Under the pieces are notes generated by a model. It was not told the origin of the DNA, searched no databases, and saw only the letters and a program-made list of their open reading frames with translations. A program made the translations under genes and the position numbers. A DNA stretch of 63,879 nucleotides, the filler included, from Aduncisulcus paluster (Eukaryota), in the NCBI GenBank assembly GCA_024181965.1. It is 35 parts of 35 records of this genome, joined end to end, with 100 filler letters (N's around TTAATTAATTAA, not from the genome) between each part and the next. Parts side by side here need not be neighbours in the genome. Positions count along the whole stretch, not along the records: positions 39,180 to 40,444 come from BQXS01010277.1; 34 more parts are not named here. One strand, 5' to 3'. Numbering within the stretch: position 1 is the first letter of the stretch; each line of letters begins with the position of its first letter. Shown here piece after piece: positions 10,740-55,204 of the stretch.

Positions 10740-11092
10740 CTAAACTGCGCTAGGAGATCCACTCCTAGACATAAAATCGTTTCATCAGTCCCGAGTTTTG
10801 TTTACATATTGGATTATAAAGTGACAAAATATGCAGATAAGTTGCAGTTGAAATCTATGAATATTGTGAATATATCATCGACTTATTGGCAGAAAAGCTA
10901 CTAGCTTCTGGTTTTCTTCAGTTTGGGTTTTCAAAGTCGTTCTCACATTCTTCTCTGCTTGCTCGATTGATAAATACTAATTCAGTTTATTANNNNNNNN
11001 NNNNNNNNNNNNNNNNNNNNNNNNNNNNNNNNNNNNTTAATTAATTAANNNNNNNNNNNNNNNNNNNNNNNNNNNNNNNNNNNNNNNNNNNN

Positions 11093-12483
11093 GTGCGAGA
11101 TTCAGGTTTCACGAGGGAATCATCAGGTCGATGACCACTTCTATGAGCAAACTCCTCTTCACGATGAATATCACGACGAAATCCCACGAGTTCCTCACAT
11201 TCTTCACGCATACCACGGTCTTTCAGTGTCTCTGCGTAAACACTCCAACGGTCTTCACCTACAAGCTTCCTTGTCAGGTCGGAAGACATATAATCGGTGC
11301 AAGACCACACGAAATGGTCATTCTTTCCACAGTAAACACACATAGGCGCCCGCACACCACGGCGAGACACATGACGACCACCACGACCACGATTTGCGGA
11401 GAAATCCAGGTCTAATTCATCACTTCCACTAACACTTTCACTGGAACGGCGTTTGTGTACGTCCACTGGAGATTTACGCACACCTACGATCGCTTTTCCG
11501 AGAGTTTTATGGAATTCAGCACGATCCACAAGGCCTAAGGCATAACGGCCAACACCCTTCACGTAATCTTCTTCCAAAACCACGGCTTTCGGATCTTCCA
11601 CACTACGTTCCTTCTTTCCATAATGGCGAAGATCGTCAAGGTCACGAGACACCTTTTCACTAAAGAATCTGGGCTTCAACCCACGCACAAATAAATCCAC
11701 AACCTCATGGATGCGACTACGATCCCATCCGGTCATCGGTCTCCTTTTGAGTAGCTGCAACCACTCAAAATTATACTTACGCATCTGATCAGGCGTAACG
11801 GCACCAAAATCGTCCTTAAACGAATCACAAGCACACACAATTTCGCTGGCCTCAGCCAATAAATTCTCGAAGGCATTCTCAGCCACGAACATCTTCAATA
11901 TATCACGAAGAGCCTGTTCTACATATTCATGGTCATCACGAGAAGCATCGAATGGCGTAGTAGCACTCATGTCAAGAACCATTAACACTTCACTTTGTAT
12001 TAATTTTCCTAAGCATGGCAGCTTCACAGAACGATCATTTTCCACGATTTCAAGACACTTATGGACGAAATCCACGATTTCAGTCGCTTCAACACTTTTA
12101 AGCTTCACGACAAAATCACCATGAGGACGACGACTCTTATCATCCATTAAGACGGTTAAACGAGATGTAGACACGTCATGTCCACGAGCAGAGGTTCCAG
12201 TAAGCGACAAATCGTCACGATCGAGCGTACTGTCCTTTAACACTAATAAACCATCTTTCTCAATGACACTCACGGAATCTTCAACGGTTTTATCACTTTC
12301 AACACTAGATTTAATCGTTGGAGACATAATTTCAGACTTATCACGAGTCACGGTCGAGGAAACACTATCACCAGATTTCCTCTTAGGGCTACCACGTTTT
12401 CCGATTATCACAACATCAGAATCACCCTTAGTATTAACACTCGAAGTGTTTTTCACGGTTTTCACGGTTTTAACTTTCGTCAT
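11093..12483 (-). mobile_element. gag: LTR retrotransposon Gag with CCHC zinc knuckle (3' partial)
   Basis: CVYCGKNDHFVWSC fits CX2CX4HX4C; LFVRGLKP is a Gag capsid-end motif. Confidence 0.8.
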
Positions 12484-12659
12484 TTATCGAAAGTTCACAA
12501 TTTTCACAGTTTCGGAATTAACACAATAAATTACCTGATAATAGTAATTTTGATCAAANNNNNNNNNNNNNNNNNNNNNNNNNNNNNNNNNNNNNNNNNN
12601 NNTTAATTAATTAANNNNNNNNNNNNNNNNNNNNNNNNNNNNNNNNNNNNNNNNNNNNG

Positions 12660-14231: not shown

Positions 14232-15756
14232 AAGACTGTCGACAAATATAACCTGAAAAGACACAAACTCAAGAATCCACTCAGGATCCGCCGTGACAAA
14301 ACGACGGAAATTCATTCCACTGGTGTCAAGCTAGAATTAGCTCTAAAAAGCGTGTCGAAAGACTACGTTTTAAACTACAACACTGAAGCAATCGTCAGTG
14401 ACATAATAACGTCGCACGAATTAACCCTGGGAGGGACATTCGCCAAAGATACGGGTGTCGTCAACAAAGAGTTCCTGAGCGCTGACTTCGGCCTCGGGGA
14501 AGAACCAGACATCGTCGACATACCAGAGACAGCTTTGAGGGGCCGTAGGGTAATAACGGCTGCAAACAAACCCAATGGAGAATATAAACGGGTTATCATT
14601 CCTCAAAAGGAAGCTAACAAGCTGGTACTGGACCTAGTCCAGGAATATAAGCACCTGTTCAATCCCACACTACCAAAAGAAGGTTGTAAATTGGGGAAGT
14701 TCGGGATCGAACTAATTGACTTGGAAAAGATAACAACCGTCAGACCAAGACATTATTCACCATTCGTAACGGAAGAAATCGAGAAGCACGTGAAGGGCTT
14801 GCTGGAGGAAGGCCTAATCGTCGAGTCAGACTCTCCTTGGTCGGCTCCAGCCTTACTAACCGATAAAAAGGGCAACGACACACGACTGTGTGTGGATTAC
14901 TCTGCTCTCAACAGGAATACACTTCCGTTGCCTTTTCCAATCCCAATGATTGCAAAGATGCTGACTCGACTGGGAGGCAAAAAGTGGTATGGTATTCTAG
15001 ATCTCCGCTCGGGATTTCACCAAATTAATATAAAGGAGGATTCGACAAAATACACAGCATTCACAACACCATCTGGGCATTATGAGTACAGGAGACTTCC
15101 ATTCGGACTCAAGAATGCACCAACCCATTTCCAGGGCCAGATGTCCAGGGCATTCAGAGGTCTTATTCCAGAGGTCTGTGAGATCTATATTGACGACATC
15201 ATCATCGCCGCAAACAGCCTGGAACAATTGGTAGAGAAGTTACGACAAGTTTTCGACAGACTAAACAACCTCAATCTCCGCCTCAAGGCGAAGAAGTGTG
15301 TCATAGGTGCGAAGAAAATAGAATATCTGGGGATGGAACTAAGCGAAAAAGGACAGACTATTGCTGAGTCCAGACTTCAGGGAATCAGAGATTTAAAACA
15401 CCCCACAAACAAGAAACAATTGAAGACTTTACTGGGGTTCTTGGGATACTTTAGGCAGTTCATACGGAACTACGCCACAATCGCGTCACCGCTTATCGAG
15501 ATGACAGCAAAACAGAAGAGCTTCGTGTGGAAGGAACCACAGGAGGGAGCCTTCAAGAAACTCAAGGAATTACTCCTGAAAAGACCAGTACTAACTCACA
15601 TCGATTACGAAAAGGAGATCGTATTGAGAACTGATGCTTCAGACGTCGGCGCAGGAGGTGTTCTCCTCCAGCGATCAAAAGACGGAAAAGAGGAGCATAT
15701 ACTGTATATTAGCAAGGCCTTTCGTGGAGCACAATTAAATTGGCCCACAATTGAAA
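14232..15756 (+). mobile_element. pol: Ty3/Gypsy pol fragment (RT + RNase H)
   Basis: RLCVDYSALN, LDLRSGFHQ, LPFGLKNAP, YIDD, and RNase H LRTDASDVGAGGVL. Confidence 0.95.
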
Positions 15757-20823: not shown

Positions 20824-22304
20824 TTGAATGAATGGGACAATGCTCAAAGTTTACCTACAAAAGTGATGATCCCAGAGTTAATTCATGCAGGCGATCCAAA
20901 ATGCTGCCCAATTCCCAGAGATTCTCCCAATAGGAATGATCCTGATTCTTCCAAAATCCGAGCAATCAATGCCACAGAAAAGTGTTCTCCTCTCTACTCC
21001 CAGAGTTCCCAAGCGCAGGAAATGATGAAAAGTGAGACTACTATTGGAAAATACACATATATTTCGATTCCTTTCTCTCGCTTTTGTTCTTGCTTTGGAG
21101 CGTATATTTGTTTACATGCTTTTCCTCGAGCTAAATGGTCTTGTCCTCCATCATATCTTATATTCACTTTTACTTCTTACAAGAAGAAAAAAATAGCCCT
21201 GAAATACGAATTTTCTGACTTTAAGAATTGGAATTGGTTCTTCCTTCCGATTGATCCCCCTGATCCCGTCATTCGATGTGAAATNNNNNNNNNNNNNNNN
21301 NNNNGTGTTCTCCTCTCTACTCCCAGAGTTCCCAAGCGCAGGAAATGATGAAAAGTGAGACTACTATTGGAAAATACACATATATTTCGATTCCTTTCTC
21401 TCGCTTTTGTTCTTGCTTTGGAGCGTATATTTGTTTACATGCTTTTCCTCGAGCTAAATGGTCTTGTCCTCCATCATATCTTATATTCACTTTTACTTCT
21501 TACAAGAAGAAAAAAATAGCCCTGAAATACGAATTTTCTGACTTTAAGAATTGGAATTGGTTCTTCCTTCCGATTGATCCCCCTGATCCCGTCATTCGAT
21601 GTGAAATAACTGGAAAAGGAAGAGAGAAAGACCATTTTAGCATCTCTTCCCTTATTTTCTTTAGAGACGAAACAGATGATGAAACAATAGCTCGTCTTGG
21701 TAAACAGAAACTGTGGTCTGAATCTCCTGTTGTGAAACCTGAGTTTGTTAAGGAAGCAGATAAAGAAACTATTTGTAAAAAAGCTCTTCCACATGATCCA
21801 AGGCTTATCTTTCCTTCATTCTCAAGGGTTACATGCAAAAATGATTCGGTGAGTAAGGAATCTGATAAGTACGATATGAGTTCAAAAGCACAAAAAATGT
21901 TGAAAGGGGAAGATTTTGTTGAATTGTCCCATCTTTCCATCCCTTTTCCTTTGCGCAGTATCATGAAAGGTGCATATATCTGTGTGAATAGGAATTGCAG
22001 TTCACCATCTCTTCTCTTCACTTTCACCAGTTTTAATGGTAAGAAGACATCCAAGAAGTATGAATTCACGAGACCCAAGCATTTATATGAATGGTACTAC
22101 CTTCCTATTGATTTGCCCCACATTGTTTCGTGTGAGATTGAAGGGAAAGGAATATGGAACGCCGAGCATGAGTGTCGAAGATTCTATTTCTACCCAATTG
22201 CATTTGTTATGCCTGAAGTAGCCATTGCTGGTCCTGATCGGTTCTTTCTTTTGCCTTGGGAACATTCCAAAGATGAAGAAGAAAAAGATACAATCCATTT
22301 GTAA
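20824..22304 (+). CDS. Two-domain member of the expanded family; one gene split by a gap with an artefactual 303-bp overlap
   Basis: 20982-21284 is repeated exactly after the 20-N gap. Collapsing the overlap gives one ORF with two ISIPF/LSIPF…WxxLPID…CEIxG domains. Confidence 0.8.
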
Positions 22305-27174: not shown

Positions 27175-27915
27175 ATGCTTCGTGATAGCAAATGTGGATA
27201 TTTCTCTATATGAGGAGATTAGAGCAGGATAAAATTATTTTGAGCACAAAATAAATTATTTTAGGCGTTGTAAGTTATGAAAGTTACATATTTATTGGAT
27301 ATAATATTTTGCGGTTTGGGTGTGTTGGATTGGGATTTGTGCAAATCTTTCTTTGTTCGTAATCAAACATATTAATATTATCTCCTCTGGGCCTGCGCAA
27401 CCCAGGGGAGGTGGTAATAATATTTTGATGGTCTATTTTTGTTTTTTTTATGGTACGTTTCTGTGTTTTTGTTTTTTTTGTAAATACCCCCAAAATGGAG
27501 TATACTCCAGGATTTTTATGTTTTTTTTGTTTGTTCTGTTTGTTTTCTTTATTTTGACATTATTTAAGCTAAATTATAATAGTAAATCTGACTCAAAAAT
27601 GTTGCCCTCGATTTCACCCTTTAAACATGCTTTATTTAAGATTCTAATAGCGTCCGGGGCCAAATAAACCGATATAAAACATTAATTTAGGCTTAAAAGG
27701 CCCCTTATATTTTTATGGTCATATCTGAAACTGGATGGCGATTTCCAAATCAACTTCAAAAATGATATCATTTTAATTTTTCAGAATGATATCATTTCCT
27801 ATATCATTCTGATACTTATTTATGAACATTCTTTCTGTAATCAAACTTTCATTACGGATAGTATTTTGATTTATTATTGATATAAAATGGATCCTGAGAA
27901 AAAGTTTCCCTGTGT

Positions 27916-28646
27916 ATAGATGATGAGGAAATAAGGAAGTTGATCAAAGATGCGCAAGAAGAAGCTCCTCCAGACCCATCCACTCACGAACGAGAAGGAG
28001 ATCTCTGGACCTCAATATCCACAGGAAATATTTATATACCTGAGGACAAAAGCTTACACCTCGCACTAATCAGACATTTTCACTCTGCAACAACCGGACA
28101 TCATGGGATTAGAGCAACCATAGACAAGCTAAAAGACTATGGACTCACCTGGACAACAATGTACATTGATGTAAGGAAGACAATCAAGGGATGCCTCACC
28201 TGCCAGAAAATCGCAGAGCAGAAGAAAACAACGCAAGCCCCAACATTCAGTATCGCTCATGAGGTAACCGGACACACATGGTTCATCGACTCTCTCGGGC
28301 CACTTCCCAAAACAGCAGACGGATATGAGTACATCATGGCCGCCACAGACGCATTCTCTCGCTACACAGAACTCTTTCCTCTCACCTCTCTTACAGCGAA
28401 GGAAGCCATGTTCCATATACTAAGCCTAATCGGAAGGCATGGAATGCCCAATACAATCCACACAGATCAAGGCCCCCAATTTGCCAATTATCTGGCAGAT
28501 CATGTGTACGACACACTAGGCATACGTCATCACAGAGTCACACCCCACCACCCAACCGGAAATGGGATGGTCGAACGAATGAATCGGGAGATCAAGAGAC
28601 ACCTCAGAGCTCAAATGCTGGAACTCTCAGAAATGTCAGACTGGCC
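27916..28646 (+). mobile_element. Gypsy-type integrase (HHCC + DDE), 5'-truncated
   Basis: H…GHHG…CLTC zinc finger, WFIDSLGP, IHTDQGPQF, NGMVERMN. An in-frame stop at 27895 lies in unrelated AT-rich DNA. Confidence 0.92.
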
Positions 28647-29153
28647 NNNNNNNNNNNNNNNNNNNNNNNNNNNNNNNNNNNNNNNNNNNNTTAATTAATT
28701 AANNNNNNNNNNNNNNNNNNNNNNNNNNNNNNNNNNNNNNNNNNNNGGAACAAAATGATCTTGAAGAGAGGAAGACATGGGTTGATGATGACGGATTGAA
28801 AATAAATTGAATGAAATGAAAAACAATACGCCAAGGAATGCTCCAATGGCCACGAGAATGACATGACAACGAGAACACGGGATATGAGTGTGATAGATCC
28901 TTAGGTACCCCGATGTTCTGGCTTCTGTATGCATGTGAATGGGAATTACAAATATATTATTTTGAAATATATGTGATTGGCATACAAACGATGGGTACTC
29001 AGATACATCTATCAGGATTTAGATTACCGATATAATGTTGCTGCCGTTCACAAATTCCACAATGAAGGTACAACACCGATTTAAATAAATCGTTATAACT
29101 GATCTAATGTTGGGGTTTGTCGCTGTCGTTGCTGTGAACTTATGGATTTAAAA

Positions 29154-31939: not shown

Positions 31940-32521
31940 GTGGAGTGGATGAACGACTCCGAATATGCGCTTGCCTTCCTGAGTGTGGATCCCACCGAGA
32001 CGACCGAGACTCGCCTGCTCAAGCTTATGCTCCTGCGTGCCTACAATGTCAAGCTCAAGGAACGGATGCGTGTGCGAGGGTTTGTCATCGACCATGGTCT
32101 CACTGACCTCAGACGTGTCCAGGAAGAACGATTTATTACAGAGAATACCAAGGTTGACGCAGCTCATCCCCGTGTCAAGGAATTGAGTGAGTTGAGCGAG
32201 AGTGGGAAAGAAGATCTCGCGAAACTACGTCCAATCGCCCCATTCTTCTCAAAGAAGGATTATGATACGCTGATTGATAGTTTTCGTGAGGAAAGAATTC
32301 TTCGGAAAAAGATTGACGAACTCGTTGAGGTTCAGCGCAAATATGGTGTCAAATATCTGTGCACGATTGATAAAGTGAAGAAAACTGTTGCCCGACGGGA
32401 GGAAGAAGGGCGCAAAAGGCGATCTCTGGTTGGAATGAACCGATTAACAGAGGAGGAAGTGTCTCTTCTCTCCGGTGAATTGGGTATTCCATTGAACAGC
32501 CCAAAGGAAGATCTGAAGTAA
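31940..32521 (+). CDS. ADA2: Transcriptional adaptor ADA2-like, C-terminal part
   Basis: EWMNDSE…LKLMLLRAYNVKLKERMRVRGFVIDHGL matches the ADA2 pattern E.DNDAE…LKL…YN.RL.ER. Confidence 0.8.
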   Translation: MEWMNDSEYALAFLSVDPTETTETRLLKLMLLRAYNVKLKERMRVRGFVIDHGLTDLRRVQEERFITENTKVDAAHPRVKELSELSESGKEDLAKLRPIAPFFSKKDYDTLIDSFREERILRKKIDELVEVQRKYGVKYLCTIDKVKKTVARREEEGRKRRSLVGMNRLTEEEVSLLSGELGIPLNSPKEDLK

Positions 32522-37725: not shown

Positions 37726-39079
37726 ACAGTACAATGTATATTAGACACTGGTGCGTCGAGTTCTGTCATCTCAAGGAGGTTAGTTCATTTATTAGGGATA
37801 AAAATCCAAGAGTCTACAATTAACGAAGTGTTCCTTGCTGATGGGAGTCCCATAGCCGTTTTGGGTACCGTAAAAATTCATACCTCGCTCCCCGGAGTCG
37901 ATGGAATGAGTATGGAGTTTGAAGAGATTTGTTTGGTTATAGAAATGAAAGGCAACAAACAAGTTGAATTTTTGATCGGTAAGGAGAGAATTCTCAAAAA
38001 TGATTTACTCGACTGGCTGCAAGAGTTGCCAGAAGAAGACGACGTTCTCATTGAAGATGAATTAAACAAGGAGATTGTCTCGCCTTTCGATTTGGACAAC
38101 GGCTTATGGACTTGCGAAATACCAGAATTACACAGCAAAATTGATTCTTTACTTCAGGGTTATTGTATGAAAATTGACAAAAACAAACCCGCCTCGGTCC
38201 CGGAGTTTAGTCTAAACTTCCCAGAAGACCGGAAACCTATCGCCCTTAAATGCAGAAAAGTTCCGTTTCATTTGCAGAATGAAGTTAGGGGTTGGATCGA
38301 CGAGTTACTTGATTCACATTTTATTGTTCCCTCGAGGAGCGAGTTTGCAGCCCCTATTGTTTTAGTCAGAAAGCCAAATGGAGGCCTCCGACTATGTTGC
38401 GATTATACTTTGCTCAACAGGGTCACTCCGAACGACGAGTATCCAATTCCACGGCAAGACATGCTTTTCTCCGCCTTGGAAGGTAAATCTATCTTTGCTG
38501 CTCTTGATCTCAAGAACGGGTACTTCAATATCGCGGTGGACAAGAAGTCAAGACATCAAACGGCATTTATCACGCCGTGGGGTCTGTTCGAATGGAACAG
38601 GATGCCATTCGGCCTTAAGTCAGCACCCGCTCACTTTCAGCGGTGCCTGAACGCGATCTTCAAAGGTATGATGCCTCAGAAGTGCCTCATTTATTTAGAC
38701 GATATTCTTGTCTTCGGAAGCAATGAAGAGGAATTCTTAAATAATTTAGCCAGTGTTTTGTCCAGGCTGGCAGAATACAATCTTTTCTTGAACTTGGAAA
38801 AATGCAAGATAGGTGTACGGAGAGTCCGTTACTTAGGGTTCTTTATTTCAGAAAAAGGCCGCTCAGTTGATCCGAAACGTCTAGAAGTCATGCGACAAAT
38901 ATCCCCACCAACGTCGCTAAAAGAGCTCCAGGCACTAGTTGGTAAGCTCAATTTCCTCCGCGAGTTCATCCCTGATTACTCCAGAGCTGCTGAACCTTTG
39001 ACTCGAATAATGCGGAAAGGTTATTCGATAAGTGAGTGGAAGGAGGAACAATCAACCGCTTGGGCAAAAATTTTAGATC
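37726..39079 (+). mobile_element. pol: Ty3/Gypsy pol fragment (aspartic protease + RT)
   Basis: ILDTGASSSVIS protease site upstream of the track start; RLCCDY, LDLKNGY, MPFGLKSAP, YLDD. Confidence 0.95.
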
Positions 39080-39420
39080 NNNNNNNNNNNNNNNNNNNNN
39101 NNNNNNNNNNNNNNNNNNNNNNNTTAATTAATTAANNNNNNNNNNNNNNNNNNNNNNNNNNNNNNNNNNNNNNNNNNNNAATTCAATATTGAAGTGAAGA
39201 TATTGAAGGATATTTCACATGAAAAAGTGTGCAAAGGTTGTGACCTGTTTATTTGCTATTCTACACATAAAAAGATTGCAAAGGAAATGAAGAAAAAAAC
39301 AAAACACGAATATTGCTGTTTGTATATTCCTTTCCCAAGGGGCTCATTCAAGTAGGAAGTCAAAAAGTTACTCCGTTTAAACCTCGTGTAAAATAAGTAA
39401 ATTTGCTACTAGCAGTATGG

Positions 39421-39565
39421 TGTGGTATAATAATGCATATTTTAGTGCCATTATTTATACATGAGGTTATTTTATTATTATTTATCCGTCCCCATGGTAA
39501 GATTTATGCAGCATTGTATTTTAGTAAATTGTATCACCGGCACTTTGCTAATCTACGATATCACA
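39421..39565 (+). mobile_element. Putative 5' LTR of family A (145 bp)
   Basis: Near-inverted termini TGTGGTAT…ATATCACA, ending 59 nt upstream of a gag-like ATG. Confidence 0.7.
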
Positions 39566-39624
39566 GTTAATTAACTTTAATCCAGATTGATATTAAACTA
39601 AGTTTACTTTAAACTTGGAAAATT

Positions 39625-39893
39625 ATGACCGTACCTGACAAAACAAAATTTTTGTTAAAAGGAACGAACGCTGATAATTGGCAGGACTTTAAAGATGGTT
39701 ATGAAGAATATTCTTTACAAGGAGGAAAACTTCAAATGTTTAAATTAATTCCAAGAACTCATATATTGTCCCTTATGACCAAAGTTAAAATGACCCGCTT
39801 AACATCGAAGAATATTGAAGACTTCTATAAAAAGGTTGAAAAATCTTTTCAAACAACTAATTTGAGAGAGCTGTATCACCAACTGGAAGTTCT
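39625..39893 (+). mobile_element. gag: Gag N-terminus of family A, interrupted by an insertion
   Basis: LKGTNADNWQDFKDGYEEYSLQGG resembles LKEINVAKYQKFLSDFKAYVARGG in the RT-linked ORF 46696-47409. Confidence 0.65.
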
Positions 39894-40159
39894 TGTGGTG
39901 ACCATTCTCAGGGACATTCTAAAAATAGATTGGTTCTGTTGTGACGTAGAATTATCATTATTATTATTATTATTATCATTATTATTATTATTATTATTGT
40001 TCTCACCGTCTAATTATAGATACCTATTTATAGATGAACCTTGTTTGTTTTTATTTAATAAATTGTACCTTAGCGTTAGCACCGTGCTAACCTGTGACAG
40101 GTTCGCTCGAGATCTGTTTATTAATAAATTGGACCGCATTATCGTATAGTTTGGCCACA
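39894..40159 (+). mobile_element. 5' LTR of family B (98 bp), split by a solo LTR
   Basis: TGTGG…CCACA termini. 39894-39936 plus 40105-40159 matches the reverse complement of 40292-40389 at 96/98. Confidence 0.85.
39937..40099. mobile_element. Solo LTR of family C (163 bp) with a 5-bp target-site duplication GGTTC
   Basis: TGT…ACA termini; GGTTC at 39932-39936 and 40100-40104; internal (TTA)n. Confidence 0.85.
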
Positions 40160-40291
40160 TTTTGATCAAAATCATATCAAACTACCTTTACTATATAATT
40201 GACGCCAAAATTTTTCTGTTAAAATGGTACAAACAAGAAGCCAATTGAAAAACGCCAATATTGATAATAATGATGAAGAATTTGAAATTGT

Positions 40292-40444
40292 TGTGGCCAA
40301 ACTAAACTATAATGCGGTCCAATTTATTAATAAACAGATCTCGAGCGAACCAATCTATTTTTAGAATGTCCCTGAGAATGGTCACCACATCCTCCTCTCA
40401 CTTGAAGAGGTCATCTCATGGCCGAAACCCTGTTCTCCTCTTCG
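40292..40444 (-). mobile_element. 3' LTR (40292-40389) plus polypurine tract of a second family-B copy in opposite orientation
   Basis: The minus strand reads GAGAGGAGGA|TGTGGTGACC…TTGGCCACA. Confidence 0.85.
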
Positions 40445-40544: not shown

Positions 40545-41381
40545 GTAAGATCTTCTCCGGCAATGTCTTCGTATTCTTCCACGTCACGCGCATCAAATTC
40601 CATGGATAAAAATGAAAAGTTTTGTTCATTTCTTCACCCTTCGTCTGCCTTTATTGTTCCCTCGACCACCTCAACGTCTTCCTCCTCTTCCTCCTCTTCC
40701 TCCTCTTCCTCCTCTTTCTCTTCTTTCTCACCTTCTGGCCATATTCCGGCATTCTCATCCCAACCGATGGGAACACCTGGCATGCTGCCACACCATCCAG
40801 GACCTCTTCAACCTTCGCCTTTCACCGGTCCTCCCTCTTCTCTCCCCCCCTCTTCCTCTTCTTCCTTCCCTTTATCAATCCAGGAAGTTACTTGCCTTAT
40901 CGACGTGTTCCATTCTTTTACTCAGCAGGAAACGACTGTGGCAAGGTTGGCGAAAGGAGTTGTCAGCGTCGAAAGTAAGTTGGCCAAGAATGTTGGAGAA
41001 GTCGATGAAGATGTCAGCGAGGTTCATTACATTGCTCTGGGCATTCTTGGAATATTGTATTCACATGTGTTTGCCGGAATTGACGAATCAAACACTCGTC
41101 GAAATGATAAGTTTGGTGGAAAACGGGATAGAATAGCTTCACCTCCAAAACTTCGACTCGATCCAGACGCTAGCAAAGGAATGGGGGCGACCAAAGTGAA
41201 AGAAAGTGATAATATCGTGAGGGAATGTCGTGTTGCCCTAATGGCTCTTAGGAAGGAGCTTATGGAGAAAAGAAAGGGTGTAGATGGCAGTGTCGTGTGT
41301 GTTTATGACCAAGTATTGAGTATGGTCGAAAGAGGATTGAAATTATGCAGGATAAAAGAGAAACGTATAAATATTAAATAA
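40545..41381 (+). CDS. Hypothetical protein C-terminus with poly-Ser
   Basis: 272-aa ORF starting near the contig edge. Confidence 0.6.
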   Translation, partial: VRSSPAMSSYSSTSRASNSMDKNEKFCSFLHPSSAFIVPSTTSTSSSSSSSSSSSSSFSSFSPSGHIPAFSSQPMGTPGMLPHHPGPLQPSPFTGPPSSLPPSSSSSFPLSIQEVTCLIDVFHSFTQQETTVARLAKGVVSVESKLAKNVGEVDEDVSEVHYIALGILGILYSHVFAGIDESNTRRNDKFGGKRDRIASPPKLRLDPDASKGMGATKVKESDNIVRECRVALMALRKELMEKRKGVDGSVVCVYDQVLSMVERGLKLCRIKEKRINIK

Positions 41382-42146
41382 AAGTATGTAAAATAGGAAC
41401 GATTTATCCCAAATTCGATATATTTCGAGCATTTATTTCAAAATATTTTCTTGCAAATGTTATTAATCGTTTAATTCGGTCAGAAACAAAAATCGTAATC
41501 TATCCGCCTACCCTTACTGTTCCCACACCATCTTCCATCTCCACTCCATTCTTCATATAACTGTCCATATATCCAATCTTTTTATTCCTGCCCAATCATG
41601 CCCCAATAAGCTCTACAGCATCTCGACGATTTTCCATTCTTNNNNNNNNNNNNNNNNNNNNTAAATAAAAGTATGTAAAATAGGAACGATTTATCCCAAA
41701 TTCGATATATTTCGAGCATTTATTTCAAAATATTTTCTTGCAAATGTTATTAATCGTTTAATTCGGTCAGAAACAAAAATCGTAATCTATCCGCCTACCC
41801 TTACTGTTCCCACACCATCTTCCATCTCCACTCCATTCTTCATATAACTGTCCATATATCCAATCTTTTTATTCCTGCCCAATCATGCCCCAATAAGCTC
41901 TACAGCATCTCGACGATTTTCCATTCTTTCTTTGTTGCTTGACAAGAAATTTATATCGTTTCAATTCTCTCTTGTGCATGTTGTCGTAGTCAAAATACTT
42001 GTTGTCAGCATAGATTCTCCATTCGTTGGCCTTGTCAAATCAATTTTGTCTCGATTTTCATTTATTGGCCGTGTTTGTGTTCCCAGTGGCATTTCTTTTT
42101 TTTCGACACATCCACATTTTAACCACATACAGTATTATAATATCTT

Positions 42147-46131: not shown

Positions 46132-47409
46132 CTTCCCAGGAACTCGATTGATCTGAAACCAAACTCACACTTACAAGCTTTTGCACGCAGATCTAATTCC
46201 TCGAATCTGGTTAAAACCCGCTCCAGATTTAAACAGAATTCCTCAATCGTTCGACCATAGATGATAATGTCATCGACAAATATGTTGCACACAGTAGGGA
46301 TCAGATCAGAAAACGCATTCATCATTGCTTGTTGAAAGTGAGCTGACGAGTTCCTTGTTCCGAAGGGCATTCTCGTATATTTAAATACCCCATATTTCGT
46401 TGTAAATGCCAGATACTTTTGGGATTCCTTCTCTACAGGTACTTGGTGAAATCCTGATCTGGCATCTATTTTCCCAAAGATGGCTTGTCCTTTCAACGAA
46501 TCAAGTAGTTCAGGTACAATTGGTAACGGGTACTGGAGAGGAACTGTGTTTCGATTTAATGGAATGTAGTTTACACACATCCTAGTACCACCACCAGGTT
46601 TTGGGACAAAAACAGGGGAACACACATAAGGAGAACTTTCTTTGACAATCAACCCTGATTCCAAACCTGAACTAATGTTGTCACGAAGAATCTTATCATA
46701 GGCGGGTGGAAAACGTCTCGGTTTGACACTCCAGACTGCTTTCGAATTGGTTAACTCCACACGGAACGGAGACAACATTAGTTAGTAGAGACATCAATGG
46801 TTTCTTCTTATCTGCCTCACTGGCATAGAACTTGAGGAGACGGCACACGGTAGAGGAGAGACAATGTTCAATAGGCTTCGATCCCCCCCTGGCTACATAG
46901 GCTTTGAAGTCTGATAAGAACTTTTGATACTTCGCCACATTAATCTCCTTCAGTACTGGAGGATCAAGAGCAACTGGCATATGTACACATGAGACAGAGC
47001 TTTTCGGAGGGACAGCTACAGGGTGGAAAAGAGAAGGTTCTAATTCATCTTTTGTGAGAGGATGTCGTCGAGCTTGCGTTAACTCAGGAAATTTCTCATC
47101 TTCTTCTGTTTTATCAAGCTTTTCAGACTCATGAGATTCAGAGAGAATATCTAATCGAATTCTTCTTTGCTCTTCTTTTAAATGATGATTTTGATCAACC
47201 ATGGATTTAAACATATCGATTAATCGATTCATGCCAGCATTTAAGGTCTCAATTTGCTGCTGCTGCTTAGCCAGCATAAGATCAATCTTTGATGGACTAC
47301 TAACGATGTCCGGGTTCTGGGTATCTAAAGTCGTCACCTCAGAGCGTCCCAGATGGCTTGAAGGCAGGGCTGCTGCCTTTTTAATAGGGGTTCTTTCTAA
47401 TATTGGCAT
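46132..47409 (-). mobile_element. Internally deleted Gypsy element: gag-like N-terminus joined out of frame to RT
   Basis: RT motifs RMCVNY, IDARSGFHQ, MPFG and FVDD begin about 50 aa after the gag-like motif; no knuckle or protease lies between them. Confidence 0.8.
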
Positions 47410-47631
47410 AAAGGAATATATAAATATGAAATAATTAAAATTAAAAGGTATTTTAACAATAATTAGAGTAAAATTTATTTAAAATTTCCATTTCAAATTT
47501 AGCTCGTTACAATTTGATTTAAATTTTATTTTCATATAGAAGGTAATGTTATGATTATTTTAATAAATTAATTATTTAATAATGTAAAAACCACTTGTTA
47601 TCCATTCGAGACATATTCAATCCTTGTTTGC

Positions 47632-48116
47632 ATGATTCCATCACCTGGAAGTCCAGAAAGGGCTTTTTCTATTTATAAAAAGCATGTCAAACAGACGACT
47701 CGAGAGAGAATTGCCTATGCAATTCTGTTTTTTGGTGTGAATCCTAAGATGGCTGCTACTTCTTTATTAGTGACAAGAAGAACCATTCAGAATTGGGTTA
47801 ATTCATTTTTTAAGAAACCTAAAGCTATTGATAGAAGTCATTTATTAAAATTGAATGATCATGAGTGTGAATGGCTGAAATCTGTGCTAGATGAGAACCC
47901 CCGGCTTTTTTTAGACGAAATTGCCCAATTAATTTATGAACGATTTAGAAAGAAAATAAGTACAACCACTGTTTTTAGAATAATTCGATATAGACTTGGA
48001 TATACAAGAAGGCGAATTTGTACCAGAGCCAAGCAAATCCTTAAGATGGATATTCATAGATATGAAACGATTTTGCAGAAGAAATACAAATATGCAAGGA
48101 GACTTTATTTTGTTGA
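47632..48116 (+). mobile_element. IS630/Tc1-mariner transposase, N-terminal part
   Basis: HTH (AATSLLVTRRTIQNWV), winged HTH (ENPRLFLDEIA…ISTTTVFRII…LGYTRRR); the contig ends at LYFV-ga, where the first catalytic Asp is expected. Confidence 0.88.
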
Positions 48117-51207: not shown

Positions 51208-52291
51208 CCGAGACGACCGAGACTCGCCTGCTCAAGCTTATGCTCCTGCGTGCCTACAATGTCAAGCTCAAGGAACGGATGCGTGTGCGAGGGTTTGTCA
51301 TCGACCATGGTCTCACTGACCTCAGACGTGTCCAGGAAGAACGATTTATTACAGAGAATACCAAGGTTGACGCAGCTCATCCCCGTGTCAAGGAATTGAG
51401 TGAGTTGAGCGAGAGTGGGAAAGAAGATCTCGCGAAACTACGTCCAATCGCCCCATTCTTCTCAAAGAAGGATTATGATACGCTGATTGATAGTTTTCGT
51501 GAGGAAAGAATTCTTCGGAAAAAGATTGACGAACTCGTTGAGGTTCAGCGCAAATATGGTGTCAAATATCTGTGCACGATTGATAAAGTGAAGAAAACTG
51601 TTGCCCGACGGGAGGAAGAAGGGCGCAAAAGGCGATCTCTGGTTGGAATGAACCGATTAACAGAGGAGGAAGTGTCTCTTCTCTCCGGTGAATTGGGTAT
51701 TCCATTGAACAGTCCAAAGGAAGACCTGAAGTAAAAATAAGTAAAATCTCCGTCATTTCATTCAGAAATCTCACCCTTCCTTGCGAACAACCTTGTACAA
51801 TGTTCGAGAATCATGAGTAAGCACAACGATCTCCTTTGGCCACTCTTGTCTCCCAGATGGACGCACTGGATATACAAGCACATTTCGACCGTGATTATTC
51901 GTGTGCATGATGACAACACTCTCATCGCGAAGGGAACAGCCAGAAGTGAATCCTTCCACTTCTCCTCCAACCTTTTCCCCTCCAACCTTTTCCCCTTCTT
52001 CTTTCTCATCTTCCTTCTCAGCTTCCTTCTCAACTTCCTTCTCAACTTCAACTCCAGGATCTAAAAATAGACGTCGAATAATAATATTGTTTCCCCCGAC
52101 AGAGTAGAGAATAGAGTTGCATCCTTCGACCATCTGGATATGTCCATCTCCTAGTGACACGGATGACACCATCGAATCTCCACCCGAGGTCAACCGATCC
52201 CATTCATGCAGTTCTAACCGCTTTGCAGACGTGTTGTGGATGAGAAAATGATTGGGAATATGAGAAAGGGCATGAAATCCTACACCAGATT
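51208..52291 (+). repeat. ADA2: Near-identical second copy of the ADA2 contig (ADA2 fragment to 51734; convergent ORF from 51771)
   Basis: Matches 31995-33068 apart from a few substitutions around the ADA2 stop. Confidence 0.92.
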
Positions 52292-52391: not shown

Positions 52392-55204
52392 AGTCAAAGA
52401 CAGTCCCATTAATGATGGATAGAGAAGTCAGGGATGAAAACCCAGATAAATCAATCTTAGACACAATGGTTACTTCATCAAAGATAAGCTCGGAAAGCGA
52501 TGGAACTGCAGCAGCAATTTCATTAATTAGCGATTGAGTAAAAGTAGAACAGGAACAAGCTGTGCAATTGTCACACCCTCCAATCACGGAGAGAGACGAC
52601 AAGTTGGATGCATATTCAAGACCAGAAAAAGAGGTCACATTATTTGACACGGAAAGTGAAGAGATCGTCTCCATCTCAGAAGTTGAGATATTAAAGCAGT
52701 TGTCCAATGGATATCCAAGAGCAGTCTTCACGGCATTAGAAAGGTAATCGTCGGAAAAGATGACATATTCACATGCACCTCCATCCACACTCGAAAGATT
52801 TGATGATGTACAAGTGCATATATGGCTTCCAGAATCACATGTCCCGAATGCAGATCCATTACACACCAGTTGAGACCCAAATGAGACGGGACAGTTCTGA
52901 TCACACAAGGAACCATAGAATCCTTCGGAACAAACTGTGCCACAGATCACAGAACCGTCCGAGTTAAGGATGGATTGAACATCACCCTTGAGCTCACAAA
53001 CACCTGCTCGAATGGAATTGTCGAAGGCTATGATATTTGGATTGGAGACACAAGTCCCATCACAACTCAAAGATTCACCCAATGGACATGCCTTCATACA
53101 TTTGTTGAGATTCTTGTTCCAATAGTATCCATCCCAACACTCAATCTGGTGCGATGTGTTTGCTCGTTTCCGACAAGTCCGATAATCCAAGAAGGAACAA
53201 TACGATTCATTGCATGGGCAAGTACCTTGAGAGTGATATATGAGATATATACTGGTACCATTGTTGAAATGGGNNNNNNNNNNNNNNNNNNNNCTATGAT
53301 ATTTGGATTGGAGACACAAGTCCCATCACAACTCAAAGATTCACCCAATGGACATGCCTTCATACATTTGTTGAGATTCTTGTTCCAATAGTATCCATCC
53401 CAACACTCAATCTGGTGCGATGTGTTTGCTCGTTTCCGACAAGTCCGATAATCCAAGAAGGAACAATACGATTCATTGCATGGGCAAGTACCTTGAGAGT
53501 GATATATGAGATATATACTGGTACCATTGTTGAAATGGGAAGCAAATGTGGAAGCAACATTAGCAATATCACAGATATTATTAGAGCTAATATCAAGACC
53601 ACTGAAAGTACCAATGGGGAATAAACCAGAAGTAATAAACACAGAAACGTCAGAGATGGAGTTGGCTGAAAGATTAAGTGATGTTAGCTTGAAAGGTTTG
53701 GTGGTTGGATCTCCATCAGCAATGGGAGTCAGATCAAGAACATCACTGACTTCACTCAAACCACATCCACTTGCATTCAAAGATGTAAGACCGGAATTAA
53801 TGGAACCAAAAGCATTCGAATATGTCACTGCCTTCGCTAAGATCTGAACCACCAACTTGTCATACTCAGCATTGGGGTTGGTATCTCCACTCAAATCATA
53901 CCCGGAAACATTCAAAAATGTCAACGAGGTGGCATACTCAAGACCTTGTAGGGTTGTGATATCATCTAGAAACACAGTCAATGTCGATGTAACATCTAAT
54001 AGTGACAATGAGGAATCAGTACATGAGAGAGCACTTCGCATGGTGGCAACTGTTATGATTCCAGAGGTAAGACTGCACGAACAATTAACATTCAGATAAC
54101 TTCTTATGTAGTCATCATGGACAGTGTAACACTCACCACTGGTCCCTTCCTTCGCAATGAATGCACATTGTTTCGCGTTCACACCATCCACACTGTTGTA
54201 CACCTCATTCAGAACTATTGAAGGGCATGAAGCATTTGAAGTATCACAGTTATATGGGGAGTTCCCAGGATCAGAGTTGAGAGGACAGCTATTGGGAATA
54301 TAGATAGTGTCCTTATAATCTGAGGAATGAATTGGAAAGATAGTCGTTATAAATGTCCAATAATCGGTATCATCTTCTGATCTACAGAGAGGTATGAATG
54401 CAGAATGAGATGTATGCGCAATATACATCTTAGACAATCCAACATTCCTATATGAGACAGATATATCATAGATTTGTTCATTCCCATAAATATACAATCC
54501 ATTCAATCTATTCAATGTGAATAAAGAATTGAAATCATAAATATTGGCATCATATGTAGATGAAGTCTGATTAAAAGATAAGATTGAGAGTTGTTCAAGG
54601 AAAGAAATAGGATAAATTGATGTTACATCTGTATTTGATCCAGAGAAAAGATAAATGTTTATCAAATACTGAGCACCTTCAAAGGACGTAATATGGTATC
54701 CATACGAATAAAAAGACCCATTTATACCAGCCATTTCAAACTCTGAGACATCACAAAGTGGATCTAATGTAATATCATATCCGGCATAATCACACACTTT
54801 CTCTCTAAATAACTCATCCGGAATATACACCTGATATAATTGGTCACAGTCATCTCCATACCAGGCTACACGGCACCCACATGTTATGGAAGTAGCACCA
54901 ACTTCAAGAACAGGTTTCATGTTTGAATGTCTTTCACATACTTGGAGACGAATAGAATCATCAACATCTGAAGCAGCGGTTGTGCATGAATATGGCGGGG
55001 TTCCAGTTGGAGAATCAAGCTCATAACCACTTGCACATACCTCAAGACACTCTCCACTGGCTTTGTCAAGATAGTACCCATTCCAACACTCAACGGCCCA
55101 ACGATCGGGATACACTTCTCGACACACTTGGTGGTCAGAAGAAGACACAGATGCAGTGCAGTGACATGTTTGGTCAGAGTAAGTGATCGAACTCAAACCA
55201 GCTC
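52392..55204 (-). CDS. Large LRR + EGF-like cysteine-rich protein (fragment; artefactual overlap at the 53274-53293 gap)
   Basis: LQGLEYATSL, LTSLNLSANSISD, CRVAWYGDDC, CSEGFYGSLC; 53028-53273 is duplicated after the gap. Confidence 0.85.

Follow-up and report, generated by a model that had tools for sequence, protein, structure and literature searches.

How do the long terminal repeat (LTR) retrotransposons of Aduncisulcus paluster, a free-living fornicate metamonad flagellate, begin minus-strand DNA synthesis if the position of the tRNA primer-binding site is occupied by a palindrome? Two routes of minus-strand priming are established for LTR retroelements, namely, priming from a tRNA, whole or internal, and self-priming of the Tf1 type. 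The question is raised by one contig (39180-40444) of a 63,879-nt stretch of the assembly of this organism (hereafter, the window), which is a chain of approximately 35 contigs of 0.9-4.6 kb each, whose order does not reflect neighbourhood in the genome. The contig harbors parts of two elements, A and B, which are real LTR retrotransposons of this flagellate, with a perfect 12-14-bp palindrome in the place of the tRNA primer site. The proposal examined here, for and against which we consider the chances to be evenly divided, is that this palindrome is the minus-strand priming site and would work through self-complementarity of the RNA.

The palindrome of element A, AGTTAATTAACT (39565-39576, plus strand), is 12 bp long with the inner hexamer TAATTA, and its first base is the final A of an LTR-like repeat, repeat A. 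That of element B, ATTTTGATCAAAAT (40159-40172, plus strand), is 14 bp long with the inner hexamer TGATCA, and its first base is the final A of LTR B. Both are perfect and neither extends beyond its 12 or 14 bp. A preliminary description had reported two perfect palindromes that share the final LTR base, lie about 50 nt before an ATG, differ in sequence while agreeing in position and symmetry, and fill the primer-binding-site slot. Inspection of the sequence bears this out: the distances from palindrome end to ATG are 48 nt in A (ATG at 39625) and 51 nt in B (ATG at 40224), both palindromes start on a repeat-end A, and both directly follow repeat ends that are supported by the evidence given below. 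The recurrence of the B motif, formerly placed at 12548-12558, was likewise found, at 12547-12558 (minus strand), where, in a third element, C, TTTGATCAAAAT stands at the 5' edge of the leader, approximately 63 nt upstream of the gag ATG; the contig ends here, so that the LTR is out of view. At both of the junctions with a visible LTR end (2/2), the sequence counted from the final A of the LTR is palindromic.

The end of LTR B is fixed by two copies lying in opposite orientation within the same contig. The uninterrupted copy (40292-40389, minus strand) is 98 bp long, contains the pentamer GGTTC once and represents an empty site. The forward copy is composed of the first 43 bp (TGTGGTGACC..., 39894-39936, plus strand; 100% identical to the inverted copy at 40347-40389) and the last 60 bp (...TTTGGCCACA, 40100-40159, plus strand; 97% match to 40292-40351, inverted), separated by a 163-bp sequence, TGTTGTGAC...CTGTGACA (39937-40099, plus strand), that is missing from the uninterrupted copy. 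Alignment of the two copies gives a true LTR B length of 98 bp (39894-39936 plus 40105-40159) and leaves 168 extra bases in the forward copy, that is, the 163-bp insert and a second GGTTC, with the left pentamer at 39932-39936 (within LTR B) and the right one at 40100-40104 (both plus strand). A filled and an empty site with this 5-bp duplication show the insert to be a solo LTR that sits inside LTR B and belongs to a third family, D. The LTR ends are TGTGG...CCACA in both copies of B and TGTTG...GTGACA in D, and the two hallmarks of integrase-type LTR elements, TG...CA ends and a short target duplication, are present in B/D; for A, the CA end alone is supported. Homology of the two LTR B copies stops exactly at the CA of 40158-40159, after which the forward copy continues with TTTTGATCAAAAT and the inverted one with unrelated sequence. 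Accordingly, the CA end at 40159 given in the preliminary description stands, and its left edge does not, the interval 39937-40160 being D plus the last 60 bp of B.

Read-derived contigs of two runs, X1 (possibly DNA) and X2 (possibly RNA, the RNA status of X2 and of a further run, X3, being only a guess), point to the same boundary. X1 and X2 stem from a single sample, which may be the very source of the window assembly, and they thus carry no independence from the assembly data. In these two runs, five different read-contig flanks abut the CA end of LTR B, found as loose ends before 40288-40292, and the read depth of LTR B (approximately 300,000-700,000) is two to three times that of the B leader and gag start (approximately 190,000-300,000), an excess that fits two LTRs per element plus solo LTRs. 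The sequences abutting the CA end in read contigs, five for LTR B and one for repeat A, all differ from one another, and none of these six alternative flanks opens with a palindrome, as read by eye from the consensus letters; the palindrome is therefore part of the internal junction and not of the LTR. No read variants are listed inside palindromes A and B, and five variable places occur at 40183-40193, within 21 nt after palindrome B.

Repeat A (39422-39565, plus strand) has a 3' end that is supported by reads and a start at 39422 (TGTGGTAT...) that is a guess. An X1 contig covering 39393-39565 halts at this end and the next begins at 39536, the 30-nt overlap (k-1) marking a branch directly after 39565; X2 gives another continuation past this position. 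Repeats A, B and D all end in CA and carry TAAATTG(T/G)A(T/C)C, together with a sequence resembling a poly(A) signal, AATAAA (B and D) or AGTAAA (A), 28-34 nt before the end, and it is this shared end architecture that ties repeat A to the other two. Self-BLAST of the window revealed no second copy of repeat A and, among further LTR copies, the inverted LTR B only; a search of the window with the shared LTR motif gave none. The family-A LTR of the preliminary description hence keeps its 3' end, on account of the read branch, and is at most a putative terminal repeat, on account of the single copy and of the depths considered below.

Perfect palindromes of at least 12 bp occur naturally 31 times in the window, as compared with 20.6 ± 3.8 in shuffled sequences, or approximately 5e-4 per position. 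This count leaves out 34 further palindromes of at least 12 bp that belong to the artificial spacers between contigs (N44-TTAATTAATTAA-N44; e.g., 39080-39179). The other natural palindromes sit in ordinary genes or intergenic DNA. Palindromes alone are common; chance does not lead one to expect that two of them begin exactly where two repeats have their last base.

The leaders between repeat and gag are short, measuring 59 nt in A, 64 nt in B and at least 75 nt in C. Those of A and B align with a local score of 20, where shuffles give 10.4 ± 2.0 and attain that score once in 2000, and judged by this alignment they are homologous. The A leader has ten extra bases at the LTR edge (39566-39575), which themselves form a palindrome, GTTAATTAAC, followed by a degenerate, decayed homologue of the B motif in shifted register, TTTAATCCAGAT (39576-39587, plus strand). 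B and C share the 12-nt motif, and their remaining leaders are no more alike than shuffles (p 0.18). The LTR-edge sequence has thus changed in related leaders, with symmetry and overlap with the final A retained, and the keeping of symmetry and position while the sequence changes counts against a fixed external primer.

Neither of the two primer sites sought in these leaders, canonical or of the Tf1 type, was found. The preliminary description had seen neither a TGG-type site nor a Tf1-type complement within the LTR, and both negatives held. The B and C leaders contain no TGG at all, and the single TGG of the A leader lies 8 nt before the ATG. For self-priming of the Tf1 type, the start of the leader (14 or 25 nt in B, 12 or 25 nt in A) was compared with the LTR itself, wherever in it the transcript may start, and pairing was no better than in shuffles: in B, the shares of shuffles at least as good were 0.67 and 0.41, and in A they were 0.84 and 0.91. 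As neither a canonical nor a Tf1-type site is present, both models are ruled out, as far as testable in this window.

The calculated energies suit intermolecular pairing better than a hairpin: each palindrome taken singly gives 0 kcal/mol and no stable hairpin, and the two-strand duplexes give -10.8 and -12.6 kcal/mol. A weak pairing within each leader is suggestive only. In element A, a possible 6-bp hairpin joins TTTAAT (39576-39581) with ATTAAA (39592-39597), and in element B, TTTGAT (40161-40166) may pair with ATCAAA (40176-40181) (all plus strand), the latter appearing in the minimum-energy fold and not being significant alone. The TTTRAT/ATYAAA pairing, with a 9-10-nt loop, is present at homologous positions in A and B, with a partial counterpart in C and with 16 of 18 cells paired as against 28-56% for slid partners, and includes one G-C to A-U double change; 322 of 500 shuffles were as good, and the structure was derived from the same three sequences on which it was scored. 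Stems between U5 and leader (39557-63/39588-94 in A and 40150-55/40204-09 in B) were rejected, as they occupy non-homologous places and their folds do not surpass those of shuffled sequences (z -1.9 and 0.1). RNAalifold found no consensus structure, and Rfam gave only chance-level matches on the region.

A described case of this feature does exist, although the preliminary description knew of none. The GalEa Copia elements of fungi have no tRNA-type primer site, and the sequence after their LTR, CHSeq1, is palindromic only if the final A of the LTR is counted (Donnart et al. 2017, BMC Genomics 18:410, PMC5445492). According to the passages of that paper that deal with the site, CHSeq1 is CTGATCAGT or CTAATTAGT in 85% of families, the others varying mainly at nucleotides 3 and 6; a 9-mer located 12-41 bp downstream, CHSeq2, is its inverse complement save for a conserved A/A mismatch, the two together forming the 'Conserved Hairpin Site'; the LTRs measure 138-311 bp, run TGT...CA and are accompanied by a target duplication of 5 bp; and different families within a single species have a longer conserved leader block in common (PMC5445492). 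The same passages state that there is no U5 complement and that no described model fits, and leave the palindromy unexplained (PMC5445492).

The likeness to the Aduncisulcus elements is close. The inner hexamers TGATCA (B and C) and TAATTA (A) are those of the two main forms of CHSeq1, and it is the same symmetric position, 3 and 6, that varies; the overlap with the final A, the TGT...CA ends, the 5-bp duplication, the absence of a tRNA-type site and a leader block common to different families in one species are likewise shared. The Aduncisulcus site is of the same kind as the CHSeq1 of the GalEa Conserved Hairpin Site. The two differ in that the palindromes here are 12 and 14 bp long instead of 10, with different bases flanking the inner six, and in that the LTRs here are shorter (98-163 bp). 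There is also no 9-nt CHSeq2 in the Aduncisulcus leaders, which have at most a 6-bp partner over a 9-10-nt loop; the host is a metamonad and not a Pezizomycotina fungus; and gag is here weakly Ty3/gypsy-like, with no Copia reverse transcriptase in the window. In a full-text literature search, the term 'Conserved Hairpin Site' was found outside the GalEa work only for TRIM elements of bivalves (PMC6934838), and 'palindromic PBS' and 'palindromic primer binding site' were unmatched. What is new here is the distant protist lineage, a very abundant family and longer forms apparently without a partner, the kind of feature itself being already in print for GalEa.

Other known systems resemble the palindromes in part. 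Tf1 self-priming was reportedly worked out by Lin and Levin in 1997, and elements of the Tf1/sushi type (Tf1, Maggy, Skippy and Cft-1, among others) are alike in dispensing with a tRNA and in using their own RNA as primer via an RNA-RNA duplex in the primer slot, cut by RNase H. Tf1, however, needs an LTR-internal complement at the transcript 5' end, of which there is none here beyond shuffles, and its primer site is non-palindromic (PMC5445492). Retroviral dimer initiation sites and the palindromic (PAL) sequences of Ty1 are likewise short self-complementary sequences of the 5' leader that pair two genomic RNAs. The Ty1 PAL sequences coexist with a tRNA primer site. Retroviral dimer sites differ from the Aduncisulcus palindromes in that they are borne in a hairpin loop, do not abut the LTR and are additional to the primer site (PMC5445492). 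Internal-tRNA ('half-tRNA') priming, as in copia, Ty5 and FunCo1, also employs sites that start other than with TGG, but these match a specific tRNA interior, a region of tRNA-Lys in the case of FunCo1 (PMC5445492), and are non-palindromic, while here there is no match to the two tRNAs of the window. Finally, bivalve TRIM elements lack a clear primer site and carry palindromes or inverted repeats in their inner domain, which their authors liken to the GalEa site in the passage concerned (PMC6934838), but they are non-autonomous miniature elements whose repeats, 9-10 bp long and 25 bp apart, stand in no fixed relation to the final LTR base.

If the palindrome is indeed the priming site, two co-packaged genomic RNAs would pair by their palindromes as a 12-14-bp duplex, in which an RNase H cut at the 3' edge, similar to that of Tf1, would release a 3'-OH. 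Reverse transcriptase would then extend the freed end through U5-R of the partner RNA. The last U of the primer would be retained on the cDNA and template the final A of the LTR, and such a retained U would explain the overlap of the palindrome with the last A of the LTR, both here and in GalEa. The RNase H of HIV-1 leaves one nucleotide of its primer, tRNA-Lys3, in a comparable manner. A partner in cis, that is, CHSeq2 in GalEa and the weak 6-bp hairpin here, could keep the site closed until dimerisation. What points to self-pairing is the location of the site in the primer slot of short leaders that offer nothing else, combined with the constraint on symmetry.

Several observations weigh against this proposal. 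A 12-14-bp duplex consisting almost entirely of A-U pairs is weak for a primer, and this DNA is rich in perfect palindromes of at least 12 bp, of which the window has 31. The sample is small, with two complete junctions (A and B) and one partial (C). A partner of the CHSeq2 type was not found downstream beyond the level of shuffles (0.23, 0.24 and 0.78). The depth of repeat A (7570) barely exceeds the value at the junction of repeat and leader (7179); almost every read copy of repeat A hence runs into the same leader, unlike what two LTRs per element would lead one to expect; its standing as a terminal repeat is unproven, and A may be one nested composite amplified as a block. No pol is linked to gag A, B or C on these contigs of 1-2 kb, and any assignment to Copia or Ty3/gypsy is therefore provisional. 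The comparison with host tRNAs, which found no match beyond shuffles, covered tRNA-Val(AAC) and tRNA-Ala(AGC), the only two in the window and a small sample.

This last point gives some room to the explanation that the palindromes are conventional primer sites for an unseen host RNA, which might be a piece of a tRNA or its interior, as in copia and Ty5, or another small RNA, with the symmetry being incidental. Neither of the two host tRNAs held by the window matches, and internal-tRNA priming is a known alternative, as in FunCo1 (PMC5445492). A fixed partner, however, predicts no symmetry, and here two different perfect palindromes occupy the same position in homologous leaders, the same symmetry rule being obeyed by the GalEa elements; moreover, a loop-free palindrome of 12-14 nt would seem unfit for a single tRNA arm, and the sites are nearly pure A/T in contrast to the two host tRNAs, which are G+C-rich by a by-eye estimate. 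We regard this explanation as quite unlikely. It also appears unlikely that the palindrome serves solely in dimerising or packaging the genomic RNA, or as a DNA site for a dimeric protein, with priming taking place elsewhere. TAATTA-type palindromes are common protein-binding sites, and the calculated duplex energies favour pairing in trans; dimerisation of retroviral RNA via palindromes is a comparison drawn by the GalEa authors themselves (PMC5445492). Such a role, however, would leave the elements without a primer site, the 59-75-nt leaders containing no TGG site, LTR complement or other conserved block, and would explain neither the abutment on the LTR nor the inclusion of its final A; retroviral dimer sites, for their part, are loop-borne and come in addition to the primer site (PMC5445492).

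The palindromes could alternatively be scars that replication or repair has left at the U5 edge, produced for example by hairpin opening or by snap-back copying of the first leader bases in inverted form. The ten extra bases at the LTR edge of element A, being exactly the palindromic GTTAATTAAC, do look like an inverted duplication. On the other hand, the common 12-nt motif of B and C amid unlike leaders, the lack of variants inside the palindromes and the recurrence of the inner hexamers in GalEa speak for constraint, which makes a scar improbable. An assembly artefact of a chimeric contig or of linkers is the suspicion raised by the contig itself, which is chimeric or rearranged: the inverted LTR B breaks gag-B, reads continue gag-B otherwise after 40293, and the artificial linker shares TTAATTAA with palindrome A. 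The rearrangement nonetheless spares both junctions, which are carried by read contigs at 39536-39621 (X1, depth 7179) and 40147-40293 (X2), and palindrome A, present in the X1 contig, is not the TTAATTAATTAA linker and is unflanked by N; we consider such an artefact extremely improbable.

Priming by the palindrome, as favoured here, would bear on more than these elements. A third class, with a palindrome in the primer slot, was noted in 2017 in one clade of fungal Copia elements, and finding the same rule in a distant eukaryote, in very abundant elements and perhaps in another superfamily, suggests a general mechanism over a clade-specific oddity. The Aduncisulcus elements further supply natural variants, namely, 12- and 14-bp forms, apparently partnerless, whose difference is a G-C to A-T exchange to either side of the axis. 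A wider claim, which for the present we put forward as tentative and rather doubtful, would be that palindrome-primed reverse transcription is a distinct and widespread mode, in which co-packaged RNAs pair at a palindrome abutting U5, and cleavage of one lets it prime on its partner; it would be shared or reinvented by fungal Copia and by probably Ty3/gypsy-like metamonad elements, with the terminal A-U pair setting the exact U5 end.

The assignment of the Aduncisulcus elements depends on their gag genes. The gag-like open reading frame (ORF) of element A is represented by its 5' part (39625-39893, plus strand), cut by the LTR B insertion at 39893/39894, and that of element B by the 23 residues of its start (MVQTRSQ..., 40224-40291, plus strand), the frame being broken at 40292 by the inverted LTR B. 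In element C, a gag ORF with a CCHC knuckle was found after a short leader; it encodes 464 amino acid residues (11092-12483, minus strand) with a zinc knuckle of the form CX2CX4HX4C. Its best database relative, P0003, is a hypothetical protein of Aduncisulcus paluster with 58% identity. In a library of 1.84 billion proteins, gag C has 15 relatives with one or two knuckles, all of at most 551 residues and without pol, two of which, P0005 and P0011, stop 26-27 residues past the last knuckle and may be cut short. Comparison of gag C with longer proteins gave one match, P0003, a 904-residue mosaic gene model without pol domains. The N-terminus of gag A aligns with that of P0009 (E 1e-4), which then continues as a relative of gag C; no homologue of similar or greater length was found for the gag A N-terminus. 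Pfam searches on gag A, B and C up to E 10 gave nothing informative. The nearest named ESM clusters of gag C are zf-CCHC, Retrotrans_gag, Ty3_capsid and PNMA, with no Copia gag family among them (high similarity, 118-138 shared features, a weak match), and on the strength of this weak feature search gag looks Ty3/gypsy-like. Metagenome scans with the exact 26-nt LTR-B/palindrome pattern were empty, and those for gag C relatives yielded 216 pattern matches and no relatives.

Separately, the N-terminal 104 residues of gag A (39625-39936) are nearest, by language-model features, to the SAM-like (core-binding) domains of phage integrases, Phage_int_SAM_3 (very high similarity with 127-129 shared features, a weak match). 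A tyrosine-recombinase element (DIRS/Ngaro) is nevertheless made unlikely by the TG..CA ends and the 5-bp duplication, the SAM-like hint having no Pfam backing up to E 10. In another contig (46132-48116), a minus-strand ORF from 47408 is 96% identical to residues 575-787 of P0003 and is followed by an RVT_1 domain (46134-46781) with no protease between them; upstream lies an ORF with a helix-turn-helix of the DNA-transposase kind (47572-48114, plus strand). The 14 nt TTGATCAAAATCAT are common to the B leader (40162-40175) and to a coding stretch of this retroelement contig (47185-47198, minus strand), probably by coincidence.

Contig 39180-40444 shows some further peculiarities. LTR B contains a 12-bp palindrome of its own, TTTATTAATAAA (40117-40128 and 40323-40334), which has the sequence of a poly(A) signal on both strands. 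The repeat preceding repeat A (39180-39360) has a depth of 54,000-113,000, most of its copies continue differently past 39360, and a 154-nt stretch recurs unchanged in X3, a run that bears the label of another organism. One read contig passes from 39685 directly into LTR B at its first base, 39894, and so leaves out 208 nt; its depth is 5198 as compared with approximately 2000 for the colinear form, and most copies of element A may have either a second site occupied by LTR B or a deletion.

The draft genome of Aduncisulcus paluster consists of 29.4 Mb in 25,863 contigs with a G+C content of 39.1%, according to the genome announcement, the searched passages of which make no mention of repeats or transposons. 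The G+C content of the window is 30-45%, with the exception of the last contig, and a good number of the contigs consist of one long ORF. A Pfam scan of 38 ORFs of the window identified RVT_1 in three of them, one with a protease (37726-39078), one with an RNase H (14232-15755) and the one at 46134-46781 mentioned above, Integrase_H2C2 plus rve in one (27898-28647) and the Copia-type RVT_2 in none. The last contig (59273-63879) has a G+C content of 52-64%, encodes a DUF2800/PD-(D/E)XK protein and an Enc34-type ssDNA-binding protein, and resembles a piece of a phage or prophage from a co-cultured bacterium more than it does host DNA. Three 20-N gaps (20982-21604, 41375-41928 and 53028-53539) are flanked by exact duplicates of 246-300 nt, which look like unmerged contig overlaps within scaffolds. 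Two contigs share 300 nt with 100% identity in a TADA2A-like gene (31995-32294 and 51208-51507), which may reflect a duplicate contig or a recent duplication. Finally, an ORF at 1498-2478 contains a PD-(D/E)XK nuclease family transposase domain (PDDEXK_2, E 1e-24), a transposase family familiar mostly from bacteria.

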